A stretch of DNA of 64,000 bases, from the NCBI GenBank assembly GCA_033763315.1, contig JANRKS010000032.1, positions 224,001 through 288,000 of the forward strand. The letters are read 5' to 3'. Under the pieces are notes generated by a model, which was not told where the DNA came from, ran no database searches, and worked only from the letters and a program-made list of their open reading frames with translations. The translations under genes and the position numbers were made by a program. The stretch comes from Deltaproteobacteria bacterium (lineage in GTDB: Bacteria; Myxococcota_A; Polyangia; Fen-1088). Below, in pieces: positions 4,903-49,113 of the stretch (position 1 is the first letter of the stretch; each line of letters begins with the position of its first letter).

Positions 4903-6147
4903 TTAAACCTCGGCTCGAAACGCCTCGACGGGCGCGATGCGGGCGGCACGGCGCGCCGGCCACAGGCCCGCCAACAAGCCCGCGGCCACCAAGATCACTG
5001 TGGCAGAGAGGCCCACGCCGATGTCGACGTCGGGGTTTTTGAAAAAGTCATTGTCGGGCAACAAGGTTTTGGCGAACTCGACCAAGGCCACCGCTGCCAC
5101 GAGCCCCAGATAGCCAGACGCCGTGGTGATGACCAAGGCCTCTTCCAACACCATGAGAACAATGGACCACGGCGTGGCACCCAAAGCTTTGCGAACGCCG
5201 AACTCTTTGGTGCGTTCCTTCACCGAGATCAACATGATGTTGCCCACGCCCACCACGCCAGCCAAGATCGTGCCAAGCCCGATCAACCACACGAAGCTGC
5301 GGATGGCCCACAGCACACCCTGCATCTTCTCGTGCATAAAATGGTTGTTGCGCACGCGGATGCCACCCGTGTCGGTGGGATCGAAGCCATGACGTTGCGC
5401 CAGGCGCCGTTTCAGATCCTTGACGATGGTCTCAGCCTGGGGCACAGGTGTGTTGCCGACGGTAAACATGAGCTGATCGATGGTGTGGTCGCTGGCAAAC
5501 ACAAGCTGTGCGGTGGATAGAGGAATGTAGATGTTTTCTTGCTCACCTTGATCGCCTTTGTCGTCAAAGATGCCCACGATGTGAAAGGTTGTGCGCCCGA
5601 CGCGGATGTCCGCGCCCATGGCCTGATCGTCTTGGCCATGCGGGAAAAGCACTTTCACAACCTTGCGACCCACGACGGCCACCTTACGGCGCTCGCGTAG
5701 ATCGGCGTCATTGATATAGCGGCCTTGCGAGATGGTTGTGCGCTCCAAGTATTGATGATCCGGATGCACGGCGCGCACGGGGAATGTGCCTTGGTTCGGG
5801 CCACGCGCTGTCATCAGGTTGCCGCGTGGCAAATAGCGGGCCGTCATGTGGTCGGCCACATCCACGGTGGCTTTGGCCAAATCGTAATCATCGTTTGTCA
5901 TGACGATGCGCCTGTTCTTGGTGCGCCCTTCGAACGGCTTGTTGGTGCGCGTGGGAAACAACCACACGCTGTTCGCTGCGTCGTCGCGGAACGCATTCTC
6001 GGCGCCATTGGCCAGGCCATTGCCGGCGGCCAGCAACACCACAAGCATAAAGATGCCCCACGCCACGGAAAGCGCCGTGAGCGCTGTGCGCAGGCGCCGC
6101 CGCGCCAACGACGCGAAGATCTCTCGCCATCGATCAAGGGCACGCAT
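4903..6147 (-). CDS. MacB/FtsX-type ABC transporter permease
   Basis: LRTALTALSVAWG and GVGNIMLISVKERTKEFGVRKALGA; paralog of the adjacent permease. Confidence 0.93.
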   Translation of the reverse strand: MRALDRWREIFASLARRRLRTALTALSVAWGIFMLVVLLAAGNGLANGAENAFRDDAANSVWLFPTRTNKPFEGRTKNRRIVMTNDDYDLAKATVDVADHMTARYLPRGNLMTARGPNQGTFPVRAVHPDHQYLERTTISQGRYINDADLRERRKVAVVGRKVVKVLFPHGQDDQAMGADIRVGRTTFHIVGIFDDKGDQGEQENIYIPLSTAQLVFASDHTIDQLMFTVGNTPVPQAETIVKDLKRRLAQRHGFDPTDTGGIRVRNNHFMHEKMQGVLWAIRSFVWLIGLGTILAGVVGVGNIMLISVKERTKEFGVRKALGATPWSIVLMVLEEALVITTASGYLGLVAAVALVEFAKTLLPDNDFFKNPDVDIGVGLSATVILVAAGLLAGLWPARRAARIAPVEAFRAEV

Positions 6148-33300: not shown

Positions 33301-35246
33301 CCCGCACGCGCGCCGGCTTCCTTGTGGTCCAGCTGCAAAGCCACGGCGTAGGCTTCGGCGGCCTCACGGGGGCGTTCAAGGTGTAAAGACAGCACGTCGC
33401 CCAGCTGCACATAAGCGTTCACAGAACGCACGTGGTCTTGCTTTGCGATGCCGCCCAAGCGATCGGCCAAGGCGTCCCACTGCTCTTGTTGCGTGTAAAG
33501 CTCGATCAGGCTCTCGGCGGTTTCGACGCTCACGCCAAATCGACGCTCGATCTCAAGCCACGTTTCCGTGGCGTCGGCTTTGCGATCAAGGGCGTCTTCG
33601 TAAACATGCGCCAGCTGCGCCAGATCGTTGCGCTTGGCTTCGTTGTTTTGCGACAGTTCGGCGCGCGCACGCAGAACTTCGGTGAGCCGTTCCCACTGTT
33701 TGGCTTCCACCAAACCGGTCACCAAAGCGTCAAGCGCGTCGGTATCAGTGGACGACAGCGCCAACCGCGCTTCCCACGCGGCCAAGGCGCGCGGCAGATC
33801 ATTGAGCGCAGTGGCAAGCTTTGCGGCGGTGCCCCAAGCCGCTTGTTTTTCCGCAAGCTCAGGCGCCATCTTGGCCAACGTCTCAAGGGCGGCCAACCGA
33901 CGCGCGGGCTCCCCGTAGCGAGCCAAAAGCTTCGTCAAGCGTCGCAGCGCTGTGAGGTGGTGGCCCTGATCGGCGCCCGCGTCCTCGGTCACTCGTTGCA
34001 ACAGCGTGATCGCTTCGCTGTGCCGGCCGCGCACATCGTCTTCCACGCGCGCGGCTTCCAGCAGCAGCGCGGCCCGCAAATTGTCGTCGGTGCTCGACTG
34101 TGCGGCAGCCAACAGGCCTTGCACGTAGACATCGAATCGTTCCGCCACTTCGGCCAGCTGCCGCAAGCGCACACGTGCAGGCGCGTCGGTGGGGCTAAGC
34201 GACAACAATTCAACCAACCGCTCCATGGCGGCCACGTTGTAGTCCTGCGCCGTCAATCGCTCAGAGGCTTCGCGCAGCAGCCGCAGCTTCTCTTCGCCTG
34301 AAGCAAACTCATGGGCCGTCTCAAGCGCCTCCACAATGCGGGCTTTTTCACCCAGCCGCTCGTAGTCGTTGCGCAACAACGCCAGCGCCGTTTGGCGCTG
34401 CTCAGGCGCAGCGTCAGGCATCTTCAAAATGCGTTCAAGCACTTTGCACGCGGCATCGTCTTCGCGCGCCTTAAGCAGCTGCTGCGCATCGAGCAGCGCC
34501 CCGGCGACGTTGCCCAAATGATCCAGGCGCAAGTTCGCGAGGCGTGCGCGCATCTCGTGTTGTTCCGCGCCCACGAGCGTGTCTAGGCGGGCCACCCACA
34601 ACGTTTGCAGATCTTCCCAACGTTGTTCTTTGTCGAGCAGACGTTCCAGCGAGGCCGCCAAATGCGGATCGTTAGGGCGGCTGCGAAACAATTCATTGAG
34701 GTATCCGATCGCGCGATCCGCGCTGCCCAAAAAGTCTTTCGCAACACCGGCGGCTTCTTCCAGAAGCTTGCGGCGGCGCGGGCTCTCTTTGAGGCCTTTG
34801 AGCAGCTGGTCGTAAACGCTGAGCAGCTCCTCCCAGCGTTGGGACACCGACAGCAACAAGGTCAGCCGTTCGGCGGCCCATTCAAGCTCCGGCGCCTTTA
34901 GCAGCAAGCTGCGCAGCAGCTCGATGATCTCATCAGGTGTATCGCCAAACCATTCTTCGTAAAACGAAAGCGCGCGTTTGCCAAGCGTGTCGGCCACCTC
35001 AACGCTGGCCGTTTTGAGCACTTGCCGGTAAAGCTCGGCGACGTCTTCAGGACGTTGGCGGGCGGCCGCAAGATCTTCAAGCGCGTCCCAGGCGGTGTCG
35101 TCTGTGGGATGCGTGGCCGCGCGGTTTATCGCGGCTGCCAATGCATCGTTTTCAGGACCAGCGGCGCGGGTCATTTCGTCAGAAGGGGCCATCTTGGAAT
35201 CCTTGGAATCCGTGGAGCGCGATGTTCGAGGGTCTGTGAACGTCAT
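27399..35246 (-). CDS. Giant tetratricopeptide-repeat protein (AgmK-like alpha-solenoid)
   Basis: 2615-aa uninterrupted Ala/Leu/Glu/Arg-rich ORF with recurring 'W..L..L' and 'AL..L..L' TPR-like units; resembles myxobacterial gliding-motility TPR proteins. Confidence 0.85.
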   Translation of the reverse strand: MTFTDPRTSRSTDSKDSKMAPSDEMTRAAGPENDALAAAINRAATHPTDDTAWDALEDLAAARQRPEDVAELYRQVLKTASVEVADTLGKRALSFYEEWFGDTPDEIIELLRSLLLKAPELEWAAERLTLLLSVSQRWEELLSVYDQLLKGLKESPRRRKLLEEAAGVAKDFLGSADRAIGYLNELFRSRPNDPHLAASLERLLDKEQRWEDLQTLWVARLDTLVGAEQHEMRARLANLRLDHLGNVAGALLDAQQLLKAREDDAACKVLERILKMPDAAPEQRQTALALLRNDYERLGEKARIVEALETAHEFASGEEKLRLLREASERLTAQDYNVAAMERLVELLSLSPTDAPARVRLRQLAEVAERFDVYVQGLLAAAQSSTDDNLRAALLLEAARVEDDVRGRHSEAITLLQRVTEDAGADQGHHLTALRRLTKLLARYGEPARRLAALETLAKMAPELAEKQAAWGTAAKLATALNDLPRALAAWEARLALSSTDTDALDALVTGLVEAKQWERLTEVLRARAELSQNNEAKRNDLAQLAHVYEDALDRKADATETWLEIERRFGVSVETAESLIELYTQQEQWDALADRLGGIAKQDHVRSVNAYVQLGDVLSLHLERPREAAEAYAVALQLDHKEAGARAGLQALLENPLASRTAVAALARAFDVAGEVPALLALTDKRLNVLADPASKSRVLAELASRVQSTEHDDATARALLGEALVLTPHNAHLEIELLRLCDSSESWKAAADVLGKAASALSDGESRKLNLRLAQGDCLENKAHDAPAALAAYQAALSLAPDRTAVKLAVVRVAGGLEQWAVAAEAMLRTPASTEVVKGLLLPAFEAAIKNAGAWLPACDALAEALAKRTGLPEALARDLELQIAAWCETHAPEAQARMEAALVRAAKQSPTHTPTWERLAQTQRKQPGKPLFATLCHLMTLAPESLDAGSEALRVAQDPLADAALITQRALALLAQASHLMRTDATPAGKVDVGTAVEQSTSALTSLWLSSGSKADALRAVNLQVELSGWPLPTALVRGLRRKAAKLALETLGDKARARSLYRVIVDDAPDDREAMRVLAELLEEADLLSELIALRRRELTLDLPLPERLALRLEMSRVAGLIEARSARVNTLMANLEDAPGDERTLTALGDLLAAKGQYTELADILTTQAKTLEDRGQVQNAAPLWGRVAVLAERHLQDVPRALSSYEKMVALAPTSEALDSLARLCTERAEHRAAAGWLEQRLTSAVGKDRVDVTLRLAHAYLASGQRHRAIGSMERTLAEAPRAHALREQLLATYREAQAWEPLAQALAEGCHADANDEVVLAYAREAAAIYQDKLSQPERAVPVLQMAVERLPGDRWVRTRLAEGLRVAGRNAEARAILEALLEEMGRRRSKERAAIHHQLALVARADNDLNAAIEHLDQAAAMDVGAQDILVDLAETAELAGAFDRAERAYQALLVLARRSDPAVAPISAAETLLRLSSVAAKRGDEAAAAERLDSAMAAALQSVDEAHRLQKAFVRRGEIDRAADLIERRAAAASTGADEALVMCDKARLFDELSRPEEAIAAIALALDKAPDLAEAHNLGRQIASAMNDPRRYLRLVEEALDQMRRRDDGERVCELLLRAGTVAEEDLKDLEKAAAFYTRAEQTGNRMLEVLVAIARVAASRKDKAEESRALRELAKLAETTTAPSEQAEISFKLAELQLRSAQTRLIGLETLSAALDKSPDFARAQAIVQAAQVPEDELPRVMPLYERVARASGDDHMLLDFLERRAAGKEVTQQEVSEAVELALSMGESARAERLLERAVLLAEQRGQAREAAWALLDLAQRKRASGDLRSAFKWLKEAAENSDSPRIPALLRDVAREAAHQTNGAMLATEVYEYLRARNPSDKELWQPLIELYSQLGNEDHLRTVVSDTLEKLLDRNDRIRVRLLWARHLMQNAGDEQEAASVLRDILLEEPGHREALMALAEIHERRGDVSEAVALLSDSLREAESRGDADWQAETSRRLGDLLRKADPAQAKQVYRQALSSNIPDPALKLSLQKSLLDLLDEDEREERAALAEELLAGETGEAAATRALFIATMYRDMGDAAAERRLLNVGRKLAPANPEIFDRLAALLENEQNWDAWADLMDTEATRRATERPEDAAALLRRAAATRREKLLDKAGAAELLKKAAALGSSDIEQVRELAACLREMGDSAGALDVVGQAVLKPGLTDDARVGLYRLRADLHSEANNPVAAVADLEAAFAIAGVQVGEELTDALFLLASRAADADDVEGERKAMLRVAEVFSLQGNGEKAQELLFRWVDNHPEDKAALQALRNRFEGDERWEEVAQVCQRLVGMESGEARVEAALGLAHACELLGRPADAVPSLEAVLADHPGQPAVLNILSNLYEQSGNKRKVAEMRIAAAETLDNEEERLAALTEGADIFLQDGAPEAAVDAINKAFALRPEDRTVQRLLADTLLATGQYAQAYKLLERLVGDGRGMDGGEVCALYHRMARAAGGAGDTENQLAVLKRALDADRRNGVVAAELADLAESLGDDDAALKALRAISLNSPDGPMPVAVSFFRQARIAAKNGDRQRALIFAKRALQEDPKLKEAEALLEQVR

Positions 35247-37172: not shown

Positions 37173-37526
37173 TTAGGCAAGCTGCAGCCCGCAGTCGGGG
37201 CAAGCGCCGTCTTGCAACGCGGCCGTCGAAGCGCACGCAGGGCAGGGGGGCTCGCCATCTGTGGCCGCGCCCGTGGCCACGAAGGTGCCTTCACGTTCAA
37301 GCGCTTGGTTCCATTCGTGTTGCATAAGCGCGGCGACCCGCGGCACTTCCGCGGGTGGCACGACCAGATGAATCTTCGGACCGCAACCGCAGCCACCACC
37401 CGTGTCACACGCTTCTTGCGCCCACAACGCGGCTTCAATGCCCTGCGCTTCGCAGGCCTGCAGCAAGCGCTTGAGATCGGTTAACGGGCCCGACATACAC
37501 GGCACCCAATCAGCTCTGTCAGTCAC
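37173..37526 (-). CDS. Small hypothetical protein with C-terminal zinc ribbon (DUF2007-like)
   Basis: CDTGGGCGC motif and CPAC..CPDCGL. Confidence 0.75.
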   Translation of the reverse strand: MTDRADWVPCMSGPLTDLKRLLQACEAQGIEAALWAQEACDTGGGCGCGPKIHLVVPPAEVPRVAALMQHEWNQALEREGTFVATGAATDGEPPCPACASTAALQDGACPDCGLQLA

Positions 37527-37552
37527 ATGCTGATGGTAGCACCGCGCGTTCG

Positions 37553-37585
37553 AAACGAAAAAGCCACAGCGCAGGCCGTGGCTTC
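37553..37585 (-). terminator. Rho-independent terminator of the CBS gene
   Basis: On the minus strand, stem AAGCCAC/GTGGCTT followed by TTTCGTTT. Confidence 0.7.
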
Positions 37586-37603
37586 GGTGGCAGCGGTGCT
37601 GGC

Positions 37604-38026
37604 TTAAGCGGCGCGCAGGCCGTTGGCGGTCACCTTCTTCGCTGCCTTCAAGGCGGCCGCGGTGAAGGGCGCGTCCATCGCAAACAACAGCCCGAGGAAC
37701 TGGCCACCGTCGTCGATCACGGCGATCGAGCTTGTTCCGTAGTGAGACAACGTCGCTTCAGCGTCGCCCAAGGCATCCGTGGGGCGGCAGCTTGGCGCTT
37801 TGCGCGCCATCACGTCTTCGATCGACATCGCGTGCGAAGCGGTTGACCAACGACGAAGTGCGCCGCGCGCGGCATCGGCCGCCACCATGCCCACCAAACG
37901 TCCCTGGCGGCTCACGACCGGCAAGCTATCCAGTCGATGGTCCATCATCTTCCGCAACGCCGTCTCCACAGAGTCTGTGGGGCGGCACACTGGCACCTTA
38001 CGATTCATCACCTTGTCGACGTTCAT
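37604..38026 (-). CDS. CBS domain-pair protein
   Basis: VDKVMNRKV..LPVVSRQGRLVGMV and IEDVMARK..AVIDDGGQFLGLL; AAGGA SD. Confidence 0.9.
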   Translation of the reverse strand: MNVDKVMNRKVPVCRPTDSVETALRKMMDHRLDSLPVVSRQGRLVGMVAADAARGALRRWSTASHAMSIEDVMARKAPSCRPTDALGDAEATLSHYGTSSIAVIDDGGQFLGLLFAMDAPFTAAALKAAKKVTANGLRAA

Positions 38027-38287
38027 GGCAGTTTCCTTACGCGGGCTTTTCGTTCGGAAGCTTACGGTTGCGACTTAAGACGAAATCACATGCCGGACGC
38101 GGTTTTTCCGAACGCCAACGCAGTGTAGAGGAGCGGTTGTAACGGGACTGCCAAAGCTGTGTTGCTATTGAGTAAAGCATTGCAAAAACACGGAAAAACA
38201 CCGCAGAACTTGCGCACGCGTGTAGGCAAAGGAAGGCCTTGGCGCACGTTGCCGCCTGGTGAAGATCGTTGTAGGTGGCGCTGCAAT

Positions 38288-40261
38288 ATGTTTACTCGCG
38301 AACGTGGAAGCCGTTGGTGTGGGGTGTTTATGGTCTTGAGCATGGCCGTGGCGTGCTCACTGCCTCCTGACGAGGAGGAGGATCTCGCTGCCTCTGAAGC
38401 CCTCGAAAGTGGAGGCGCGGGTGGCGCCGGGGCGGTCGGCGGCGACACGCCCTCGGGCGGCGGCGGAAGTTTCGTCGGCACGGGTGGAGCGGGCACCGGG
38501 GGGGGCTCTGGCGGCACAGCAGGCTCTGGCGGCACAGCAGGCGGAGGCGGCACAGCAGGCGGAGGCACGGCGGGTGGCGGCGCCGGAGGCACGAGTACCA
38601 CTGGTGGCGTCGACATCGACGTTGATCGAAACCGCAACGACAGGGTCGACGACCTCATCGACGATCCGGACGAAGAGCTTCCCATTAAATTTGTGGAACG
38701 CTTGGGGGCGCTTGTTCTGGTCAACTGCGACAGCGATGTGGGACGCACGGCGCGTGACATGGAGGACTTCGACATCGCGGGAGCCGACGACCTGCAGGAT
38801 CTTTCGCCGTTGTCGCTTGAACTCAAAGAAGATCTCAAGCCCAGCGAAGAATTGTGGCTGGTGCTCAAGTCGAAATCTGCTGACGGCAAACTTTGGATCA
38901 ACGTCCTCGATTCGTGGGGTGGCAAGGACAAAGTTTTGGTGGGACCTACGCCTCACGTCGCCGAAGTCAGGCTCGACAACCTTTCTATCGAAGGCAGCGC
39001 CGTCATCTTTCCGGGCGGAACCAAACAGCGCTACAACGACCGCTTTTACATTGAAGGGCTCAACTTCAACAAAGAGATGGAGTTGACCCTCGAAATTCGC
39101 GGCGGCGCGTCTGAAATCAAAGACGTTGTACGCGTGCGGACCACGCCTTGGCTGGCAAACAACAACACGCAGCCTCTGGCGACACCTGCGGCGTGGTCCA
39201 TCCCCGCGAATTTGGCGAATTCAGACTCATACAGGTTCTTGCAAGCGCACGGCGCCACAATGCAAAGCGCGGGTACGGCCCTCGAATTCGTTCAAGACTC
39301 AGTTGAATGGGGTTTTCAGGTGCGACGACGCAACGATGTTCCTGGCTTCTCCCGAGCCATGATCACAGGCTTGCGCTTGTATTCTAAGTGGGAAGACAAA
39401 CACCCTCTCACCCAGTACCTAAGCGCTAAAGTGGGCGTCTATGGCTATGCGACTACGGGCAACAGCGCTGTGTCTTTTGAGCCTTACATTGATCCACCAC
39501 ATTTTACCGATGGCAGTGGCGATCAAGGCGGAAACCTAGAGTGTCTGCCTCCCTCTGTCGCATTTCCCTTCGGTCGCTTGGTTTATGGCGACACGATGTC
39601 GACTGTGCTCCGCGATTTTCTGGCGGCCCAAGAAGTGCAGACCTCGGGTGCGGGCCCTGTGGTGCTGCCCGTGAGCAAGCTAAGCCTGGCGCATGTCGAT
39701 GAGGTCCTGTTTATCGCGCCTGCCAAGAATGCTTACATTGTTGGCATGCCCGATTGGGTGCTGGGTTCCAAGCTCATGGGGAGGTCGAAGAGCGTTCAAC
39801 ACAACGTTCGTCTGGTCGCTCAAGGCGCGAACGATCTTGCCACCTACGGCGACATTCTAAAGTGGCTCAAGAAAGACGGGCAAGCCACGGACAAGTTGTT
39901 CAGCGGCACACTCATCGGGATGCAAAATCAAATCGCAGGTGCCGGTGCGCCCGTGGTGAAGTTGCCCGGACTGTTTTTGGAGGCCGCGGGCGATGTCATG
40001 AATTCTGACAGCCTGCGGGGCTTTCCACGCAACATTGCCAACAGCCAGCCCACCGTGCCTGGCAAATTGGTGGTGTCAGCCCCTCCCAACCAAACAGTAG
40101 GTAAGCAAAAGGAATCCGAGAGCCTCTTCTTACAGGAATGGAAGAAGCTCTTGAAGGCGCAAGGCATCGCCGCCGAGCCTGAGAACATGCGTACGGCGTG
40201 GCTAAAGGGCGGCGAAGCTCATTGTTCGTCGAACACGTTGCGCGAGCCAATTCGTAAGTAG
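38288..40261 (+). CDS. Protein-arginine deiminase (animal PADI-type fold), predicted lipoprotein
   Basis: Lipobox AVAC and Gly linker; GALVLVNCDSD, FVQDSVEWG, GNLECLPP..PFGRLVYG, FLAAQEVQ, AHVDE and GEAHCSSN match PADI motifs. Confidence 0.85.
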   Translation: MFTRERGSRWCGVFMVLSMAVACSLPPDEEEDLAASEALESGGAGGAGAVGGDTPSGGGGSFVGTGGAGTGGGSGGTAGSGGTAGGGGTAGGGTAGGGAGGTSTTGGVDIDVDRNRNDRVDDLIDDPDEELPIKFVERLGALVLVNCDSDVGRTARDMEDFDIAGADDLQDLSPLSLELKEDLKPSEELWLVLKSKSADGKLWINVLDSWGGKDKVLVGPTPHVAEVRLDNLSIEGSAVIFPGGTKQRYNDRFYIEGLNFNKEMELTLEIRGGASEIKDVVRVRTTPWLANNNTQPLATPAAWSIPANLANSDSYRFLQAHGATMQSAGTALEFVQDSVEWGFQVRRRNDVPGFSRAMITGLRLYSKWEDKHPLTQYLSAKVGVYGYATTGNSAVSFEPYIDPPHFTDGSGDQGGNLECLPPSVAFPFGRLVYGDTMSTVLRDFLAAQEVQTSGAGPVVLPVSKLSLAHVDEVLFIAPAKNAYIVGMPDWVLGSKLMGRSKSVQHNVRLVAQGANDLATYGDILKWLKKDGQATDKLFSGTLIGMQNQIAGAGAPVVKLPGLFLEAAGDVMNSDSLRGFPRNIANSQPTVPGKLVVSAPPNQTVGKQKESESLFLQEWKKLLKAQGIAAEPENMRTAWLKGGEAHCSSNTLREPIRK

Positions 40262-40284
40262 GAGTCAAGCTCGATCCTGCGTTC

Positions 40285-40322
40285 GCAGCCTTGACGGCGT
40301 TCAAATCGCCGTCGTTGGCTGC
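40285..40322. other. Intergenic hairpin between PAD and the next gene
   Basis: GCAGCC-TT-GACGGCG ... CGCCGTC-GTT-GGCTGC. Confidence 0.45.
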
Positions 40323-40405
40323 CGCGCGGGTGAGTTTCTTAATGTGGCTGATCGAAATGCCGATGACCGCACCCTGACGGTCTCGAACCGTCCCAATCTC
40401 GAAGG

Positions 40406-42508
40406 ATGGGTATGGTTCACATTTCGCGACCGCACTGTATGTCTCTTTTGCTTATCGCCTCCGTGTGGGGATTGGGAGCATGCGATTCTGACCCGGCGGT
40501 CTGTGCCGTTGATGACGCCGGAGTCACGCTGCCTGACGCCGAACCTCCGCCCGAATCGAATGGAACGCAGACCGTTACGACGCAGGAGAAGCTGCCCAAA
40601 AGCTTCGTCCTCGACGATTCGCTTGAACTTCAGGTGCAATCAGGACGATGGACAACCACCACGCAATACGATGGGAGTTACCAGCCTGCGCAGCCCAGGG
40701 GCTCGCAAATTAACATCAGCGGCACTGTAAGCCTCAAGGCAGGGCCCTACGCCTACTCCCTCAATGGTGCCAGCATCAACATCAACAGTTTCAGTTACCC
40801 CCGCGCTGGCTATCGTGCCGACTACTTGTATGGCTACGCGCGGGTCACAATGCCGGCGCTCCACACGTTTTCGGGAATCAACAGCCCGTTGACGGCTCAG
40901 CTGGGGTTCGGTGAAGGATCCAGTTCTACGCTCAAGGCCTTGGGGATGCCGTTGGCGCCCTCGCGCCACTACTTCTATTTCACCACCACCGCTGGTCTTT
41001 CGTCGTCGTTTGGCACGGGCCCGTTTAGCGCGGACACCAGCCGCACAACCACGGTGATCGTGGACCCGAAGGATCCCGCGTTCTTTGTCGCAGGTCCCAT
41101 GGGGCCTATCTCGGCCGTCGCGTTGTCAGAAAAATCACTGATTCCTTTCAACGCGCAAACGCAGTGGGGGTTCGACACGCCCACCGATGAGTTTCCTTCG
41201 TTTAGCGGTCAAAGCTACATTGCCGGCGAAGTGTCACTGGAAGAGATCCCGATTACGGTCAGTGGCAACGTCACCACAAAATTCGTGAACTGGGATGGAC
41301 AAAGTGCGCTCGACAAAAAACTGTTCGAGCACACCCTGGGCATCAATGGTTCGTTCAACCTAGGATGGGATTTCTTGGACGGGCTGTTTCGCTTGGAGGT
41401 GCCTTTGTCGAAGGCTTCGCTTTACATGGCGTCCACCGTTCATCCCTACAAGGTGAATGCGGCTGTCAGTGGAACGGCTGGCACCGCCACGTTCATGCCT
41501 TCGTGGCTGCCTGTGCTGATGAGTGCCAACAGCAACTTCGCGGGTTACCTGGACACATCGGATGTTTCACGAAACCACATCGATGGCATGAGCGACATCA
41601 CGCTGAAGGCGTCGACCCTCGGCAAGGTCATCGGCATCGATATGAAGGACATCACGATGCAAAACGGCACGTACCACGTCGACAAGATGGGGTTCCGATA
41701 CAACGGCGAAGGCGTTGTTTCGGTGATCCCGTTCATCGAATCCACCAGCTACCGCGTTACGGCGTGTTTTGGCGGTGATACCAAGGCGTGTTTATCCGAC
41801 GATCAAACAGGTACGCCCGTTATGGGGTCCAAGGATTGGCTGTTGCGGCTGGAGGGGGATGCGTCTGTGTTCAACGTGCCTCTTTTGAACGCCACCACCA
41901 TGGCGAGCCCGCAAGGGATTTCGGTTGCAGCCACGTTCAAGACGCAGGGTCAGCGCGTGGCCATCACGGGGGCGCTGACCCCCGGACCGACGCCTGCGTC
42001 ACCGCACGTTGCTTTGACGGGGACCGCATCGTTTAGCCTTCCCCTCATCGGAATCAATGAGATTTTGGCAACCGCCGTGGCCGATGGCAGTTGCGGCTAT
42101 GACAAGATCACCGACGCCGCCAAATGCGGTTACAACCTTCTGAGTCAGGTGGGTGACATTTGCGGCGCCCCCCACTGCTCTTGGTCGTGGAAGCATGGCC
42201 TCAGGTGTAAGGCGATTTCTTGCCAAGTGAAGGTGGCGAAGACGTGCAACGGCTTAGCGAAAAAATGCCCCCCACCAAACGATGACCTCGGCAGGATCGA
42301 CGGCTCCGTTGCGCTCACAATCAACGAGCAAGGGATGTCTGGAAAAATGACGGGGCGGTTCTGCCCCGTGGGCAATGGCTCGTGCTCGTCGTTGTCAGAA
42401 GTTGGGACTTTGGATTTTTCGCAGATATCGAATCCAAAGATCTGCATCAACAGCAACGAGATCTCGTCAACGCTTCCTATTGGAAAGAAGTTCTGTGTGT
42501 CCTTCTAA
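40406..42508 (+). CDS. Hypothetical beta-rich lipoprotein with Cys-rich C-terminal region
   Basis: Lipobox LGAC; 700-aa ORF; CGYDKITDAAKCG..C..C cluster. No family recognised. Confidence 0.75.
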   Translation: MGMVHISRPHCMSLLLIASVWGLGACDSDPAVCAVDDAGVTLPDAEPPPESNGTQTVTTQEKLPKSFVLDDSLELQVQSGRWTTTTQYDGSYQPAQPRGSQINISGTVSLKAGPYAYSLNGASININSFSYPRAGYRADYLYGYARVTMPALHTFSGINSPLTAQLGFGEGSSSTLKALGMPLAPSRHYFYFTTTAGLSSSFGTGPFSADTSRTTTVIVDPKDPAFFVAGPMGPISAVALSEKSLIPFNAQTQWGFDTPTDEFPSFSGQSYIAGEVSLEEIPITVSGNVTTKFVNWDGQSALDKKLFEHTLGINGSFNLGWDFLDGLFRLEVPLSKASLYMASTVHPYKVNAAVSGTAGTATFMPSWLPVLMSANSNFAGYLDTSDVSRNHIDGMSDITLKASTLGKVIGIDMKDITMQNGTYHVDKMGFRYNGEGVVSVIPFIESTSYRVTACFGGDTKACLSDDQTGTPVMGSKDWLLRLEGDASVFNVPLLNATTMASPQGISVAATFKTQGQRVAITGALTPGPTPASPHVALTGTASFSLPLIGINEILATAVADGSCGYDKITDAAKCGYNLLSQVGDICGAPHCSWSWKHGLRCKAISCQVKVAKTCNGLAKKCPPPNDDLGRIDGSVALTINEQGMSGKMTGRFCPVGNGSCSSLSEVGTLDFSQISNPKICINSNEISSTLPIGKKFCVSF

Positions 42509-44669
42509 GAAATATGCAGCACGCTTTGCCGTCTTCGGATGGGTGGCGGTTGGGTTAATGGCGTGCACCGCCTCCGAGCCCACGCCGAACGCCCACATCG
42601 CGATTGTTATAGGGAGCCCTGGCACCAAGTCTGCGGCCTTGCGGCCCGTGTATGATTGGGCGATTGCCGCTGTCAATGATCGAGGCGGCGCGGGCCGCCG
42701 CAAGCTTGAGGCGAAATACTTCGACCTCACGGATCCAGTTGTCGCATCGCCCTCGGCACAGGAGGCGTTGGCCGCACAGATATTGGCGGACCCAGATTTG
42801 GTCGCCGTTGCGGGCCTCTTCTCGTTCGCCATGGCGCCCAAGTTTGTGGCGGCGCGTGTTCCCTATATATCTCCCGAAACGGGCGACGATGACGTGTTTC
42901 GAGCGTTTTCGGCGGGCGGGTATGTCTGGCGTACGCTTGAGTCAGACAGCACGCAGCTGTGGTTCATGCTTGCCGAAGCCAAAGGCCGCGGTGAGAAAAG
43001 TATGCAACCTACAACCAGCGTGGGGCTGCTGACGAGCACCGATCCCTACGGGGACACGTTCTTCGACTGGTACGGGTTTCATGCCACGGAACTTGGTCTG
43101 AAGGCTTTGCCTCCCGTGCAATACGATCAAAGCACGGGAACATGTGAACCAGCCGTAGATCGATTGTTATCGCAAGGCACACCGGATTTTCTCATCGCTG
43201 TGCCTAGTGGCCCCGATCCGGTGTTTCAGGCCACGTGCATTGTCCGCACTATGAAGGCGCTGGCGCCGACAACGAAGGTTTTGTTGGCCAATTCCGCACA
43301 CGTTCCCTCGCTTATCACGTCCCTTGGAGCCGACGCCGAAGGCTTGTCAGGCTTCAGCGCGGCGCCGGATCCCAACGCGGGATTTGCCGAAGCCTTCACA
43401 AAGTTCACAAAGCTTGACCAGGCGCCCGAGTATGCCGCCAACACGTTGGACGCGATCGCCTTGCTTGCCTACGGCCTTGAGAAGTCGCGTGGCAGGGGGG
43501 GCAAGGATTTGGATCTGGCGATGCGATCTGTGGTCAGCGGCCAAGGCGAGAAAACCACGTGGCAGGCGTTCGACCAAACCTTGGCGTTGATTCGCGACGG
43601 GCAGAGCCCGGACGTCTCCGGCGCTTCGGGGCCGCTCTCCTTCGACAAAGACGTTTATACCGATCCAACCTCGTCCTTCTACGATCGTTGGGAGGTGCAA
43701 GGCGGCGCTTTCAAGATCACGCATCACGTGACCACCGCCACCGAAGCGAGTCCGAATGTGTCGTCGCAGTCCGCTGTGGCGCGCGGGCTCAAGGCGATGA
43801 ATGTGCAGGCGATGGTGGGCTCTGGGGGCACGGCCAACCTGCCACCGGTTGCCAACAACTGGGCGTTGGTGATTGCCACATCGGCCACCTGGAAGAACTA
43901 CCGCCATCAAGCCGACGCTTTGGCACACTACCAGGCGCTTCGGGCCAATGGATTTGACGATGACCACGTTGTTCTGATCACTGTGGATGATTTGGCCGAC
44001 GCGCCTGAGAACATCCGCAAAGGACAGGTCATCAACGAGCCAGGCGGCGCCAATGTGCGCGGGGGCGCCGCGAATGATTATGTGGGAACGTCGCTTACGC
44101 CCAGCCAACTTATGACGGTGCTCGAAGGTGGAACCGATCCGGCTTTGCCGGTGGTCTTGCACAGCCAAGCCAATGACAACATTTATGTCTTTATCGTCGG
44201 CCACGGTGGCTTCGAGGGACCGTACCTGGGCATGGATGTGCGCGCGGCAGAGACGATTGATGAGGATAACTATCTTTCTCCCGAGCTGTTTGCCTCAACC
44301 GTGGCGCGCATGAAACAAAACCACCGCTTTCGTCGCATGCTGATTGCCGTGGACGCATGCCATTCAGGCGTGTTGGCGCCGGCCTTTGAGGCGATGGCGA
44401 TCCCTGACGTCGTTGTGTTTGCGGCCGCGAGCGACGCGGAGAGCTCGTTCTCAGCCAATTACGTCAGCGAGCTTGGGGTGTGGAGCGCTGACCAGTTTTC
44501 CTTCAACATGCTTAAGCAAGTGCGTAGCCCCAATGTTTCCATTCGTGAACTCTACACGCGGCTATACGAAGGCGTGGCGGGCTCTCACGTGCAGGTGGCC
44601 AACCAACAAAACTTCGGCGCCACCACGCAGATCATGCTGAGTGAGTTTGTGAAGCCCAACGCGCTCTAG
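42495..44669 (+). CDS. Type I periplasmic-binding-protein domain fused to C13 (legumain-like) peptidase, lipoprotein
   Basis: Lipobox LMAC. PBP-like motifs AIAAVNDRGG, WRTLESDSTQ, DAIALLA and GASGPLSFD; C13 motifs WALVIATS..NYRHQAD, VGHGG and DACHSG. GTG start overlaps the upstream stop. Confidence 0.85.
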   Translation: MCPSKKYAARFAVFGWVAVGLMACTASEPTPNAHIAIVIGSPGTKSAALRPVYDWAIAAVNDRGGAGRRKLEAKYFDLTDPVVASPSAQEALAAQILADPDLVAVAGLFSFAMAPKFVAARVPYISPETGDDDVFRAFSAGGYVWRTLESDSTQLWFMLAEAKGRGEKSMQPTTSVGLLTSTDPYGDTFFDWYGFHATELGLKALPPVQYDQSTGTCEPAVDRLLSQGTPDFLIAVPSGPDPVFQATCIVRTMKALAPTTKVLLANSAHVPSLITSLGADAEGLSGFSAAPDPNAGFAEAFTKFTKLDQAPEYAANTLDAIALLAYGLEKSRGRGGKDLDLAMRSVVSGQGEKTTWQAFDQTLALIRDGQSPDVSGASGPLSFDKDVYTDPTSSFYDRWEVQGGAFKITHHVTTATEASPNVSSQSAVARGLKAMNVQAMVGSGGTANLPPVANNWALVIATSATWKNYRHQADALAHYQALRANGFDDDHVVLITVDDLADAPENIRKGQVINEPGGANVRGGAANDYVGTSLTPSQLMTVLEGGTDPALPVVLHSQANDNIYVFIVGHGGFEGPYLGMDVRAAETIDEDNYLSPELFASTVARMKQNHRFRRMLIAVDACHSGVLAPAFEAMAIPDVVVFAAASDAESSFSANYVSELGVWSADQFSFNMLKQVRSPNVSIRELYTRLYEGVAGSHVQVANQQNFGATTQIMLSEFVKPNAL

Positions 44670-44799
44670 ACGGAACGGTCTGCCTGACGGCAAATGCTGA
44701 AAGATCCTCGGTGCCCGAGCGCACGGTTGCGGCTCAAATTGTCGATGCAAGCGTCGCCACCAATTGTTCCGCCATGGTCCAGCCGCCAGCGGCATCACG

Positions 44800-46092
44800 C
44801 TAAGGGCACGCCTTGATCGACTGGATCCATTCGTCGATGAGCTGCGTACCCAACGGATCGGGAACGGCGGTGCCGATCTGCGGCATGCGAACATTGCTGA
44901 CCTTGCTGTGCATGCGCACCGAGATCATCGAATGGGTTAATTCCCCGAACTGACCAACAGTGCTGTCTCCAGGCGTGAGCAGTTTGATGTTCTGGTACCC
45001 ATAATCGTTCTTGCTGGGAACCACATTGCAGATGCCCATCATCTTGAATGGCGTGTCGTAACGGAAATCTAGGGAAACCGCGTCCATGTTGGTGCGCGGG
45101 TCGATGGTTCCGCCTGGCTGGTGGCAATGTGAACAATTGGCGTGCAGATAAGAGCGTGCTCGCTGTTCGAGTGTGGCCCCCACTGTGTACACGGGCGTGG
45201 GCAAAGCTGGCAGCTTGGCGAGGTCGCCCGGAGCGGTCTCGAACACACCGATGTGGTCCAGCGTCTTTAGCTGGTTGGCACGTTTGCCCATGGGGTAATC
45301 GAACAGCCCATTGAACTGAAGCGTGTCTGGACCAAGCGATCGCCCAGCGGCTTCGGTATGGCAGGTGGCGCAGTTCGTGCGACTGGGGAACGTCCACTCG
45401 TTGTCGCCAAGAAAGCGTGAATCTGAGCCTTCGCCCAAGAGCTCGGCGTCTTTGCCAGCGTCATCCCACTTATAGGTATAGGCCCCCCACATGCCATCGC
45501 TGTGGCGGATCAGGAAGCGCGTTTCCAACATGACGCCATCGAGCGCGAACGACTTCAACAGAACTGTGCCGTTGGGAAAGTCGAAGTCGCCGTTGGTGGT
45601 GAAGCGAACCTTCTTGCCCTCGGGCAAAGCCATCCAACGATGCTTTTCTGCATTGTCGGACCACAGTGGGGACGCCACGCCATAAGGGATCAACCCGGGC
45701 GCGGGCTTGCGTGGGTCGGTTGCGTCAAAGCAGCCTGTGGCGCTGAGCTTTTTGGGGAAAGGATCGTTTGCCGCACCGGTGGGCCGGCCGGGATCCTTGC
45801 AGGTGGTGTTGGCGGGGCGGGTGTCTAGACCGAAATCAGCATTCGCAGGCAAAGGGGCACTGCCGGCCATGCCGCCGCCGCTGGCGCCACCGCTACCCCC
45901 TTGGTTCTTGCCGCCTGAACCGCCACTTGCGGGATCGCCGCCCTTGCCGCCCGCGGCAGGTTCCCCACCTTGGCCGGCCTCGCCACCGCCGTTGCCTCCT
46001 TGGGCGTCATCCGAGCCGCCGGATGACGAGCACGCCGTCACCACACTTACGCAGCCATAAAACAACGAACAGCGTAAAAACTTGCGGAACAT
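44800..46092 (-). CDS. SO2930-family diheme c-type cytochrome lipoprotein
   Basis: Lipobox VTAC; KLSATGCF, PLWSDNAEKHRW, FPNGTVLLKSF, ETRFLI; heme motifs CATCH and CSHCH; RMPQIG. Confidence 0.85.
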   Translation of the reverse strand: MFRKFLRCSLFYGCVSVVTACSSSGGSDDAQGGNGGGEAGQGGEPAAGGKGGDPASGGSGGKNQGGSGGASGGGMAGSAPLPANADFGLDTRPANTTCKDPGRPTGAANDPFPKKLSATGCFDATDPRKPAPGLIPYGVASPLWSDNAEKHRWMALPEGKKVRFTTNGDFDFPNGTVLLKSFALDGVMLETRFLIRHSDGMWGAYTYKWDDAGKDAELLGEGSDSRFLGDNEWTFPSRTNCATCHTEAAGRSLGPDTLQFNGLFDYPMGKRANQLKTLDHIGVFETAPGDLAKLPALPTPVYTVGATLEQRARSYLHANCSHCHQPGGTIDPRTNMDAVSLDFRYDTPFKMMGICNVVPSKNDYGYQNIKLLTPGDSTVGQFGELTHSMISVRMHSKVSNVRMPQIGTAVPDPLGTQLIDEWIQSIKACP

Positions 46093-46137
46093 CACAGCAA
46101 GATTAGCACAGGCGTTTTGTGTGCCATCATTGCATGC

Positions 46138-47271
46138 GTGTTCACGCGTAGACGCCTGTTAAAAATAGGGACCGCGGCCTCCTTAGGCATAGCTGCGGGG
46201 GCCGCCCGCGCCGCCGCTTCGCACGGTGTTTGGGATCCGTCGCGCGCGCGTGTCTGGCAACAACAGCAAGGCTGGTTGGTGGGGTGCAATTACATCCCCA
46301 GCAACGCTGTGAACCAGCTGGAGATGTGGCAGGCGGAGACGTTTAATCTGGCCACCATCAAGCGAGAGGTCGGCTGGGCCGCGAACCTCGGCTTCACCAG
46401 TGTGCGCGTGTTTTTGCATGATCTCCTGTGGGCACAAGATGCCCACGGTTTTACCGACCGGGTTGATGCGTTCCTTGACGTCTTGCACGCGCACAAGATG
46501 GGCGCGTTGCTGGTGTTGTTCGACAGCGTGTGGCACCCCCAGCCACATCTCGGCCCGCAGCCGCCGCCTAAGCCGTTCGTACACAACCCCGGTTGGGTGC
46601 AAAGCCCAGGCGCCGCGCTGTTGCAAGCGCCACGCGCACAACAACGAGTGCTGCTTCAGTATGTCAAAGGCATCGTTTCGCACTTCCGCAACGACAAGCG
46701 TGTGCATGGCTGGGACGTCTGGAATGAGCCTGACAACACGAACAGCGGCAGTTATGGCGAGCTTGAACCCAAAGATAAAGCGGGGCTTGTTTATCCCTTG
46801 TTGCAAGAGGTTTTCCTCTCAGCCCGCGCCGCGAAGCCAACCCAACCGCTGACAAGTGGCGTGTGGGATGGCAACTGGAAATCCGCGGGCACCTTGCAGC
46901 CGCTTGAGACGTTGATGGTGAAGAACTCAGACGTCATAAGCTTTCACTCCTACGGCAAGCCACAAGCGTTGGAGCAAAAGATCAATGAACTGCGCGCGTG
47001 GAAACGTCCCCTTCTGTGCACAGAATTTATGGCTCGCCCCGAAGGCAGCACATTCGAGCCGTGCTTGGAAATCCTCAAGCGCAACAACGTCGGCGCGTAT
47101 TGCTGGGGATTTGTGTCAGGAAAAACGCAAACGATTTATCCGTGGGACTCATGGAAGCGCCCGTATCGCGAGCTTCCAAAGCAATGGTTCCACGACGTTT
47201 TGAATGCTGATGGCACACCTTATGATCCGGCCGAGGTGACGTACATCAAGCGTGTGACGGCAAAGGGCTAA
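46138..47271 (+). CDS. GH5-like (clan A) glycoside hydrolase, Tat-exported
   Basis: TRRRLL Tat signal; GCNYIPSNAVNQLEMW, WDVWNEP (acid/base), ISFHSY, LCTEFMAR (nucleophile), WGFVSGKTQT. Confidence 0.85.
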   Translation: MFTRRRLLKIGTAASLGIAAGAARAAASHGVWDPSRARVWQQQQGWLVGCNYIPSNAVNQLEMWQAETFNLATIKREVGWAANLGFTSVRVFLHDLLWAQDAHGFTDRVDAFLDVLHAHKMGALLVLFDSVWHPQPHLGPQPPPKPFVHNPGWVQSPGAALLQAPRAQQRVLLQYVKGIVSHFRNDKRVHGWDVWNEPDNTNSGSYGELEPKDKAGLVYPLLQEVFLSARAAKPTQPLTSGVWDGNWKSAGTLQPLETLMVKNSDVISFHSYGKPQALEQKINELRAWKRPLLCTEFMARPEGSTFEPCLEILKRNNVGAYCWGFVSGKTQTIYPWDSWKRPYRELPKQWFHDVLNADGTPYDPAEVTYIKRVTAKG

Positions 47272-47274
47272 GCC

Positions 47275-49113
47275 CTACTTCGATAGCTCAGCCAAGAAGG
47301 CTTCGCCGTATTCCGCGAGTTTTTTCGGACCTACGCCTGGCAGCGCCAGAAATTCAGATTCTGAGCGCGGGCACAGCGTGGCCATCGCGCGCAGTGTGGC
47401 GTCGGAAAACACGATGTATGCAGGCAGCTTGCGTTCGTCTGCCAGTTGTTTGCGCAAGGCTTTAAGGCGCGTAAACAGATCGGCGTCCCACGTTTCTGCG
47501 TCCAGATCCATGCGCCGTGCGCCGATTGCGTCTTCGAATCGCGACAGCACTGGCGTCCGCTTCTTCGTGGGCTTCGGCAGGTTGTGCAGCAGATCCCAGC
47601 GCGCGCAGATGTCGCATGAGCTGCCGCAGCTTGAAAGCGATTCGCCTAGGTATTGCACCACCGATTGGTGGCGGCACACGCGACGATCCGCCATGTCGAA
47701 CATCTCACGGGTCTGCGCGCGGTTGCGGGCAGCGGCGTCGGCTGGGCCATCATCGATGAAGCGATCATAACTCATCACATCGGCCCACGAATAAAACAGC
47801 ACGCAATCGGATTGCAAACCATCGCGGCCCGCGCGGCCGATCTCTTGGTAATAGCTTTCCACCGAGCGCGGCATATCGCGGTGAATGACGTAGCGAATGT
47901 TTGATTTGTTGATGCCCATGCCAAACGCGATCGTGGCCACCACCACGTCGTAATCGTCGCGCAAAAACGCGTCTTGCACGCGGTCGCGTTCCACCGGATC
48001 CAACCCCGCGTGATAGGCCGACGCGCGCACGCCGGCTTCCTGCAAGAAAGCCGCGATGCTTTCCACCGACTTGCGCGTGATGCAATAAACGATGCCGCTT
48101 TCACCTTGGCGGCTGCGGATGATGTTCAAGATCGAGTCGCGCGTTTTGCTTGCCCCTTCGCCTTTTTTGTAAGCGTGCAGGTGCAGGTTCGGGCGAAAGA
48201 AGCTGCCGCGAAAGCTGACAGGATCTTCCATGCCCAACTGTTCAACGATGTCGCGCCCAACCTCGGGCGTGGCCGTGGCGGTGAGAGCCAACACCGGCAA
48301 CCCGCCGAATCGTCGTTTCAGCCCCGCAAGATTGCGATACGCAGGGCGAAAATCGTGGCCCCATTGACTGATGCAGTGGGCTTCATCCACGGCCACAAGG
48401 CGAATGCGCGCTTTGGCCAACGCGCGGCCCACGGACGCTTCAATGCCCTCAGGTGCCGCGTATACAAGTTCGTAAGCGCCGGCGGCCAAACCTTCTTCGC
48501 GTTTGCGGCGCTCTTCGGATGGCAAGCTGCTGTTTAAGTACGTGGCGCGCAAACCGTTCTCGTTTACGCCATCCACTTGATCCTTCATCAACGCAATCAG
48601 CGGCGACACCACCAACGTGGTGCCTCCCAAGACGCGCGCGGGAATTTGATATGTCAGTGATTTGCCGGCACCCGTGGGCATGATGCCGATGCAATCGCGC
48701 CCCGCGAGCACGGCGGAAATGATCTCCTTTTGGCCCGGCCGGAAGGCGTCGTAGCCGAACGCTTCTTTGAGCACCTTCAACGCGGAATCAATGGACACGG
48801 GCGCGGCGTGGGCGGCTTTGACGGCTTTGGCCAGCTTGGCCAAGCGGGGCAACGTTGTGTCGGCAAACGCGTGGGGCTGTTCTTTCCACAAGAGGCGAAG
48901 CTCGGCCAACCCAGCTTCAACTTCGGCGCGGCGCACGGGGCTGCCGGGGCCTTGTGACCACAGGGCCTCAAGGGCACTGACTTGGGCGGCAACGTTTTCG
49001 GCGGATGGGGCTTGCACAGAAGGTGTTTCGGTCGCTGGTTCCGGATGTTGCGATAAAAGTGGCCCGATTGCGACCTGGCTGTTGACCACTCGGCCGCAGC
49101 GCGTGAATTGCAT
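47275..49113 (-). CDS. recQ: RecQ family ATP-dependent DNA helicase
   Basis: MPTGAGKS, VDEAHCISQWGHDFRP, ATIAFGMGI, YYQEIGRAGRDG; Zn site CR..CGSSCDIC; HRDC PAYIVFSDATL. Start uncertain. Confidence 0.93.
   Translation of the reverse strand: MQFTRCGRVVNSQVAIGPLLSQHPEPATETPSVQAPSAENVAAQVSALEALWSQGPGSPVRRAEVEAGLAELRLLWKEQPHAFADTTLPRLAKLAKAVKAAHAAPVSIDSALKVLKEAFGYDAFRPGQKEIISAVLAGRDCIGIMPTGAGKSLTYQIPARVLGGTTLVVSPLIALMKDQVDGVNENGLRATYLNSSLPSEERRKREEGLAAGAYELVYAAPEGIEASVGRALAKARIRLVAVDEAHCISQWGHDFRPAYRNLAGLKRRFGGLPVLALTATATPEVGRDIVEQLGMEDPVSFRGSFFRPNLHLHAYKKGEGASKTRDSILNIIRSRQGESGIVYCITRKSVESIAAFLQEAGVRASAYHAGLDPVERDRVQDAFLRDDYDVVVATIAFGMGINKSNIRYVIHRDMPRSVESYYQEIGRAGRDGLQSDCVLFYSWADVMSYDRFIDDGPADAAARNRAQTREMFDMADRRVCRHQSVVQYLGESLSSCGSSCDICARWDLLHNLPKPTKKRTPVLSRFEDAIGARRMDLDAETWDADLFTRLKALRKQLADERKLPAYIVFSDATLRAMATLCPRSESEFLALPGVGPKKLAEYGEAFLAELSK

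Follow-up and report, generated by a model that had tools for sequence, protein, structure and literature searches.

The PAD gene and its product

This article concerns P0001, a gene of the protein-arginine deiminase (PAD) family that lies in a 64,000 nucleotide stretch of DNA (the window) from a Deltaproteobacteria bacterium belonging to the Myxococcota (contig JANRKS010000032.1, positions 224,001 to 288,000). The host genome (7.6 Mb in 40 contigs, 90.85% complete) contains a single PAD gene. The propionyl-CoA carboxylase beta chain encoded in the window has homologues in metagenome-assembled genomes labelled Myxococcales (86% identity) and Polyangia (74-79%). Bacterial PADs of the PF03068 family make up 837 sequences in one survey (10.1101/2020.07.16.207027) and are recorded in 295 species in another (PMC8826395, Table 1), and the functions of bacterial PADIs are described in a review as completely unknown (PMC9174705).

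The P0001 open reading frame (ORF) spans 38159-40261 of the forward strand, its upstream limit being a GTG codon at 38159. Read from the ATG at 38288, which has the sequence AGGTGG 9 nt to its 5′ side, it encodes 657 amino acids followed by a stop codon. The product can be divided into a predicted lipoprotein signal peptide, a low-complexity tether whose coding sequence includes a tandem repeat of 3 x 18 nt (38504-38557, repeat family D1), a middle domain with two Asp-rich loops (D109-D122 and N146-D171) and a catalytic domain (Table 1).

Table 1. Coordinates of P0001, its parts and the neighbouring genes in the window
Feature	Position	Strand	Basis
P0001, PAD-family gene	38288..40261	+	Pfam PAD 49.1 bits, PAD_M 30.2 bits
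Predicted lipoprotein signal peptide, residues 1-23	38288..38356	+	Arg4/6/9, hydrophobic core, lipobox AVA↓C, Cys23; lipobox regex
Low-complexity tether, residues 24-104, acidic then Gly/Ala/Thr/Ser-rich	38357..38599	+	Sequence
PAD middle domain (Ig-like, Ca-binding), residues 105-276	38600..39115	+	PAD_M residues 110-200, PAD4 147-181 alignment, model
PAD catalytic domain, residues 277-655	39116..40252	+	Pfam PAD, structure matches
Asp337, equivalent of PAD4 D350	39296..39298	+	Invariant column, profile alignment to PAD2
His469-Val-Asp471, equivalents of PAD4 H471 and D473	39692..39700	+	HMMER alignment, invariant columns
Cys646, equivalent of the PAD4 nucleophile C645	40223..40225	+	HMMER alignment, invariant column
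Variable block of ~9.2 kb between CBS-domain gene and recQ	38055..47292		Comparison with same-genus genomes
P0009, 700 amino acid predicted lipoprotein (LGA↓C), 145 nt downstream of P0001	40406..42508	+	Lipobox rule
P0010, predicted lipoprotein (LMA↓C, GTG at 42495), Peripla_BP_6 + Peptidase_C13	42495..44669	+	Pfam, lipobox rule
P0277, predicted lipoprotein (VTA↓C), Gly-rich tether, SO2930-family dihaem c-type cytochrome domain	44800..46095	-	Two CxxCH, TIGR03806
GH5/GH10-like glycoside hydrolase ORF, last gene of block	46117..47271	+	Pfam scan

Family, fold and catalytic residues

Both PAD domains are recognised in P0001 by Pfam at scores above their gathering thresholds, the check that had been proposed alongside the original prediction. 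The PAD profile (PF03068) matches with 49.1 bits (cut-off 25, E 5.4e-13) over profile positions 3-389 of 395, and PAD_M (PF08527) matches residues 110-200 with 30.2 bits (cut-off 24.8, E 3.9e-07). The same scan gave no match to PAD_N and none at E ≤ 0.01 to PF04371, the family of the Porphyromonas-type PAD and agmatine deiminase, in agreement with the earlier view that this is a different family; no NCBIfam model matched the protein. When P0001 was compared with the sequences of the PDB using phmmer, the significant matches were to human PAD1-4 and PAD6 only (best PAD4, E 2.1e-10), and a profile built from its eight closest homologues reached PAD2 and PAD4 at around 1e-24 (E 5e-25). Identity to the human PADs is 20-24%.

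An AlphaFold2 model of residues 105-657, made from a 25-sequence alignment, has a predicted local distance difference test score (pLDDT) of 88.8 and a pTM of 0.90. Foldseek places this model closest to human PAD1-4, which account for all the top PDB matches (E 1.9e-31, TM 0.71), thus bearing out the resemblance to PAD4 that had been expected. Superposition by VIA-align on residues 112-656 of PAD4 gave a Z score of 34.1 and a root-mean-square deviation of 3.2 Å over 466 residues, with scores of ~34 for Ca- or substrate-bound PAD4 and ~28-29 for apo PAD2 and inhibitor-bound PAD4. Both comparisons recover the Ig-like PAD_M fold joined to the alpha/beta-propeller catalytic fold. As residues 1-104 comprise the signal and tether, and PAD_N is absent, P0001 is a two-domain PAD (PAD_M + PAD_C).

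The original prediction described P0001 as an animal-type enzyme. In the literature this term is applied to PADIs with three domains, found in cyanobacteria and animals (PMC8826395, PMC9174705). At the level of the family the description holds, but it fails for the three-domain type because P0001 has neither PAD_N nor the Ca2 ligands, its model matches residues 112-656 of PAD4 only, and its PAD score is only 49 bits.

The four residues that form the catalytic set of PAD4 (D350, H471, D473 and C645), the roles of which are described in 10.1101/2020.07.16.207027, all have counterparts in P0001, as had been claimed. In the HMMER alignment, AHVDE falls on the PAD4 sequence GHVDE and GEAHC on GEVHC, matching H471, D473 and C645 (the numbering of PAD4 chain 3apm_A is offset by +3), and the QD pair aligns with the WIQDE motif of PAD2 in a profile alignment. 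Codon arithmetic puts D337, H469, D471 and C646 at 39296, 39692, 39698 and 40223, respectively, which are exactly the positions first reported, and every motif listed at that time (GALVLVNCDSD, FVQDS, GNLECLPPSVAFPFGRLVYG, FLAAQEVQ, AHVDE and GEAHC) is present in the translation, as is GNLECLPP..FPFGRLVYG. All four residues are invariant in the eight closest homologues (8/8); across the 25 sequences of the wider alignment D337 and D471 never vary (25/25), and conservation of H469 and C646 reaches 90% or more. The equivalence of the catalytic sites is drawn from these alignments and from the global superposition of the model. The observation of a PAD-family gene is thus confirmed in family, fold, catalytic residues and architecture, and it is virtually certain that its product is a genuine member of the family whose catalytic centre is intact.

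Calcium-binding residues

The alignment pairs residues N146, D148, D150, D157, D160, D168 and D171 of P0001 with N153, D155, D157, D165, D168, D176 and D179 of PAD4, and Q336, E340 and E418 with Q349, E353 and E411. We take these PAD4 residues to be the ligands of the Ca3-5 and Ca1 sites, and presumably E351 and D369-N373 make up the Ca2 region. Within the P0001 subclade described below, at an overall identity of 41-50%, no variation is seen in the Ca1 ligands. The first Asp-rich loop of P0001 reads D113-x-N115-x-N117...D121, with N115 and D121 occupying the columns in which two-domain PADIs carry the substitutions D125-to-N and E131-to-D (PMC8826395), and P0001 is in this respect of the two-domain type. 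According to the same study, Ca sites 1 and 3 are conserved across all PADI homologues and sites 2 and 4 occur only in Clade Ai, the three-domain PADIs (PMC8826395).

A predicted lipoprotein in an apparently exported subclade

The first 23 residues of P0001 satisfy a lipobox rule (a regular expression resembling PROSITE PS51257), having a basic n-region, a hydrophobic core and the sequence AVA↓C. The protein is therefore predicted to be a lipoprotein, as originally proposed, and we consider export in lipoprotein form probable. P0001 and P0277 both have a long Gly-rich tether directly after the lipobox cysteine, and this may be a common design for surface lipoproteins in this organism.

P0001 belongs to a rare, divergent and monophyletic bacterial subclade. 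Searching 1.84 billion representative sequences with residues 105-657 (HMMER) produced 359 hits at E ≤ 1e-3, 65 at E ≤ 1e-10 and 12 at E ≤ 1e-30, the last of these being 41-51% identical to P0001, and a word-indexed search found seven homologues. Scans of metagenome contigs, using the A1 profile and P0004, yielded no confirmed PAD locus, and a read-archive look-up listed one DNA run (0.06 share of query words) and no RNA run.

For phylogenetic analysis, 153 stored PAD hits were combined with ORFs from four loci. A total of 106 of these sequences spanned 85% or more of the profile, and removal of the L008 ORF (a near-duplicate of the Verrucomicrobial protein P0011) left 105 rows of two-domain regions, from which a tree was built under LG+G4 with a short search, midpoint rooting and no three-domain reference. 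No PAD_N domain was seen in any of the 40 PAD-family hits scanned with Pfam (15 + 25), so rooting of the tree on the animal and cyanobacterial PADIs was not possible. Ten close homologues form a monophyletic group (SH-aLRT 98, stem length 0.36) that sits within a set of other low-scoring PADs, apart from the PADs of three related Myxococcota genomes (L002-L004), which occupy the tree's other main branch and score 272-325 bits against the Pfam PAD profile compared with ~50 for P0001. The subclade is marked by the motifs FVQD[ST].EWGFQVRRQ, PWLANNNTQPL, GDQGGNLECLPP and AW..GGEAHCSSN. A weak PAD in a genome of the same family (G023) was considered as a possible member and rejected, its identity being 39% over 79 amino acids; this protein (L006 3-1646, G023:C335) has a highly divergent catalytic domain with large insertions between HVDE and GEIHC.

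Members of the subclade carry export signals together with Calx-beta, Ig, cadherin-like, LamG or CarboxypepD_reg modules, and seven of the nine that begin with methionine have a signal-like N-terminus by a crude home-made rule. Given that some of its members have signal peptides and modules of the Calx-beta, Ig or cadherin type, the subclade appears to be an exported group. By the same crude rule, a signal-like N-terminus is present in 38 of the 88 full-domain PAD hits that begin with methionine and the lipobox rule is satisfied by six, and 47 of the 88 have more than 150 residues ahead of PAD_M. Exported multidomain PADs thus seem, from their sequences, to be common in metagenomes. The wide range of fusions found in bacterial PADs is illustrated by P0090, a metagenomic protein of 1859 amino acids that combines a PAD domain with regions resembling a subtilisin-like protease and an FAD/NAD-binding oxidoreductase (weak NCBIfam hits). 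The terms 'signal peptide', 'lipoprotein' and 'secret' do not occur in the available parts of PMC8826395 and 10.1101/2020.07.16.207027, the supplements of which may list such proteins, and it seems that PAD export is not discussed in these two surveys of bacterial PADs.

Origin of the gene

The genes on either side of the block that contains P0001, encoding a CBS-domain protein and RecQ, are conserved in both available genomes of the same genus (G001 and G002). In these they lie ~2.4-2.6 kb apart with unrelated sequence between them (in G001, an ORF with an AhpC/TSA domain), and the PAD block is absent from this interval in both. PF03068 proteins are encoded by four of 40 related genomes and by neither of the two from the same genus. 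When P0001 was used to query 400 other genomes of the phylum, no match at the level of the subclade was obtained; weak matches were present in 19 of them, the best scoring 39.4 bits against a self-score of 1260.8. Peptide patterns specific to the subclade occur at two loci in the species-genome collection, both in metagenome-assembled genomes (MAGs) of Verrucomicrobiia, and the genes neighbouring these two PAD loci differ from those in the window.

The absence of the block at the syntenic site in the same-genus genomes, the identification of Verrucomicrobiia MAGs as the nearest relatives found among genomes and the position of other Myxococcota PADs in a different branch together suggest that the P0001 gene was acquired horizontally. 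Base composition was rejected as evidence of transfer on its own: GC content is 57-58% over 38.5-44 kb, and other parts of the window are equally low (57.3% at 10-12 kb).

The surrounding gene block

The block comprises five genes, four of which encode predicted lipoproteins. A scan for promoters and terminators across 37400-45200 gave counts that were not above those in shuffled controls.

Immediately downstream of P0001 is P0009, which has no Pfam or NCBIfam match. Structural searches of the protein atlas gave only sub-threshold leads of the AsmA/TamB/YhdP type (TM ≤ 0.46, model pLDDT 0.56). The idea that P0009 might be a diverged paralogue of the PAD was discarded when BLASTP detected no similarity. 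A paralogue of P0009 that is 54% identical to it is encoded elsewhere in the same genome (L031 8152-10236, G000:C5), flanked by genes for a pectate-lyase-like protein and a Phage_lysozyme2-domain protein, so that both P0009-type genes sit between genes for apparent exported enzymes. Homologues with 26-28% identity occur in two of 200 other genomes of the class.

P0010 begins within the last 14 nt of P0009. Its combination of a lipoprotein signal, a Peripla_BP_6 domain (branched-chain amino-acid-type) and a C-terminal, legumain-like Peptidase_C13 domain is unusual. The Peptidase_C13 match scores 161 bits and is the sole strong one of three in the genome.

The fourth predicted lipoprotein, P0277, is encoded on the opposite strand and matches TIGR03806 over its full length with 255 bits, below the cut-off of 313. 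Residues 105-353 of P0277 are 33% identical over 269 amino acids (E 3e-39) to residues 611-869 of P0011, a 2188 amino acid Verrucomicrobial protein whose C-terminus is a PAD of the P0001 subclade; the cytochrome region of P0011 corresponds to approximately 4923-5699 of locus L008. An SO2930-type domain is found in only one of 21 PAD-domain proteins tested, and the host genome encodes four full-length SO2930-family copies. The fusion of the two domains in P0011 and their proximity in the window amount to a single coincidence, which we treat as a lead and not as a finding.

The GH5/GH10-like ORF that completes the block was not found at the syntenic site in G001 or G002. Upstream of the block, a reverse-strand ORF (27399-35246) encodes 2615 amino acids in which TPR repeats, located towards the C-terminus, are the only domain recognised; a same-genus genome conserves its N-terminal end at 74.5% identity.

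Proposed function

We propose that P0001 is an exported, lipid-anchored, two-domain, Ca-dependent deiminase that acts on peptidyl-arginine outside the cytoplasm, and put the probability of this at roughly 0.6. From its sequence and predicted structure, we infer the lipidation, localisation, Ca dependence, activity, peptidyl-arginine substrate and biological role of the protein. Following arrival of the gene by horizontal transfer in, or beside, a block of exported-lipoprotein genes, P0001 would be exported by the Sec pathway and then lipidated at Cys23, and the flexible tether of ~80 residues would keep the enzyme beyond the cytoplasmic membrane, most probably at the outer membrane or the cell surface. 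There its conserved sites, Ca1 and Ca3-5, would take up Ca2+, with Cys646 acting as nucleophile alongside His469, Asp337 and Asp471 in a hydrolysis that turns a guanidinium into a ureido group. Conversion of peptidyl-arginine to peptidyl-citrulline on extracellular peptides or proteins would be the likeliest reaction. Precedents for such substrates are a Streptomyces PF03068 PAD that acts on a lasso-peptide precursor (10.1101/2020.07.16.207027) and a cyanobacterial PADI with Ca-dependent activity on proteins (PMC8826395). Neutralising Arg-rich antimicrobial peptides or modifying proteins of prey, host or self, as suggested when the gene was first noted, would be a plausible role for an exported enzyme of this kind.

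Several observations weigh against this proposal. The Pfam PAD score of P0001 is low (49 bits). In the profile alignment the PAD4 Ca2 ligand E351 is replaced by S338, the PAD4 loop D369-S-P-R-N-R374 becomes R363-L-Y-S-K-W368 with no equivalent of R374 being kept, and the cleft-lining residues W347 and H640 of PAD4 are replaced by F334 and W638, although loop alignments at 20-24% identity are uncertain. Neither the Ca2 ligands nor the Ca-switch region of the three-domain PADIs are therefore found in P0001 by this alignment, and with the cleft residues, the R374 equivalent and the Ca2 ligands all changed, the substrate specificity and Ca regulation of P0001 may differ from those of the animal PADs. 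The lipobox, as judged by the regular expression, has the less usual Ala at -3. As regards the origin of the gene, GC content in the block (57-60%) falls towards the bottom of the range seen in the window (57-66%) but within it, no tRNA and only short, chance-like repeats are found at the block, and general Pfam scans of the window ORFs revealed no integrase.

It is because the cleft is altered that a non-protein substrate has to be considered. With the same fold and chemistry, P0001 might act on free L-arginine, on agmatine or on some other small compound with a guanidino group, or on a secreted small peptide natural product, and in the case of the small guanidino substrates its role would be in nitrogen scavenging or detoxification. 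The PAD4 residues that hold the substrate backbone and side chain are altered (loss of the R374 equivalent, W347 to F, H640 to W), the subclade is distant in sequence from all assayed PADs (20-24% identity to the human enzymes), an amino-acid-type Peripla_BP_6 binding domain is encoded by the next gene but one and the one bacterial two-domain PAD whose substrate is known modifies a small lasso peptide (10.1101/2020.07.16.207027). Enzymes that deiminate free arginine and agmatine belong, however, to other families of the superfamily, and the best structural matches of P0001 are all protein-arginine deiminases. R374 is not known to be kept in human PAD2 or PAD3 either, and its loss does not therefore exclude protein substrates. 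General Pfam scans of the window ORFs also revealed no genes for RiPPs (peptides made on ribosomes and modified after translation) or other biosynthetic genes. On this evidence we regard a small-molecule or natural-product substrate as the leading alternative and as rather unlikely.

The location of the enzyme and its catalytic competence can be questioned in a similar way. Were the lipoprotein signal an artefact of start-codon choice or a chance lipobox, P0001 would be a cytoplasmic or soluble periplasmic protein, and both the Ala at -3 and the extension of the open frame upstream to the GTG at 38159 leave room for this. Yet the ATG at 38288 has AGGTGG 9 nt to its 5′ side, the n-region, h-region and lipobox cysteine are of textbook form and lead into a low-complexity tether of ~80 amino acids, three other genes in the block encode the same layout (with a similar Gly-rich tether in P0277), and homologues in the subclade have Sec-type signals and extracellular modules, so that a non-lipidated location is in our view improbable. 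More doubtful still is a non-catalytic role for the PAD fold, in binding or as a scaffold, in the manner of mammalian PADI6. The low Pfam score and altered surroundings of the active site would fit such a role, but throughout the subclade, at an overall identity of only 41-50%, neither the four catalytic residues nor the Ca1 ligands vary, and P0001 has the catalytic cysteine that PADI6 lacks (PMC9174705).

A bolder version of the proposed extracellular deiminase can also be sketched, one that is tentative and less likely than not. P0001 might represent an undescribed clade of exported, Ca-activated PADs that move between Verrucomicrobiota and Myxococcota and are displayed on interchangeable surface anchors (a lipid and Gly-rich tether in P0001; Calx-beta, Ig, cadherin and LamG arrays in others), where their targets for citrullination would be proteins or cationic peptides belonging to prey, to competitors or to the cell's own surface. 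Some may do so in conjunction with an SO2930-type cytochrome domain, one of which is encoded 4.5 kb from the PAD gene in the window.

Comparison with known systems

The closest known counterparts are the two-domain 'fungal-type' PADIs of actinobacteria, proteobacteria and fungi that Cummings et al. 2021 (PMC8826395) place in Clade B, an example being the Streptomyces citrulassin PAD (10.1101/2020.07.16.207027). P0001 shares with these a PAD_M plus PAD_C layout that lacks PAD_N, the catalytic D/H/D/C set, retention of the Ca1 and Ca3-5 ligands with loss of Ca2, and the Ca6-type loop residues N115 and D121. It differs in being far more divergent, forming part of a monophyletic subclade with its own motifs, and in being predicted to be exported and lipid-anchored. 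The triple-His motif at the domain junction of the fungal-type enzymes (PMC8826395) is NNN in P0001 (junction TPWLANNNTQPL), the match between columns here being approximate, and NHH or NHN in some other members of the subclade.

Three-domain PADIs (human PAD1-4 and the cyanobacterial enzyme, for which Ca-dependent protein citrullination has been reported; PMC8826395) have in common with P0001 the family, the fold of PAD4 residues 112-656, the catalytic tetrad and most of the PAD_M Ca ligands. They differ from it in possessing PAD_N, the Ca2 ligands and the Ca-switch region, which P0001 lacks or has replaced, as well as in the R374 equivalent, and they are cytosolic or nuclear enzymes whereas P0001 is predicted to be extracytoplasmic.

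The Porphyromonas gingivalis enzyme PPAD (PF04371) offers an analogy only. It is an exported envelope enzyme of the guanidino-modifying superfamily, as P0001 is predicted to be, in a host with exported cysteine peptidases, and a predicted C13 peptidase lipoprotein is encoded two genes downstream of P0001, a parallel in gene proximity. PPAD leaves the cell by type IX secretion rather than by way of a lipobox. The two belong to different families, P0001 having no PF04371 match, and PPAD is Ca-independent (10.1101/2020.07.16.207027).

Significance

Our literature searches found no description of an exported or lipoprotein PADI or of a myxobacterial PAD. What is apparently new here, as far as sequence and model can tell, is a rare, divergent subclade that has apparently spread horizontally, the predicted display of a PAD on a lipid anchor, and the altered cleft and Ca2 region. 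The sole bacterial two-domain PAD with a known substrate is a PF03068 enzyme that deiminates a lasso-peptide precursor (citrulassin) inside Streptomyces (10.1101/2020.07.16.207027). A compact two-domain enzyme with an altered cleft would also lend itself to comparison with PAD4 in studies of specificity. If there is indeed a clade of exported, surface-tethered PADs, it would bring citrullination into the extracellular biology of environmental bacteria, in predation, competition or resistance to cationic peptides, and would widen the sequence space of the family that is ancestral to the animal PADIs.

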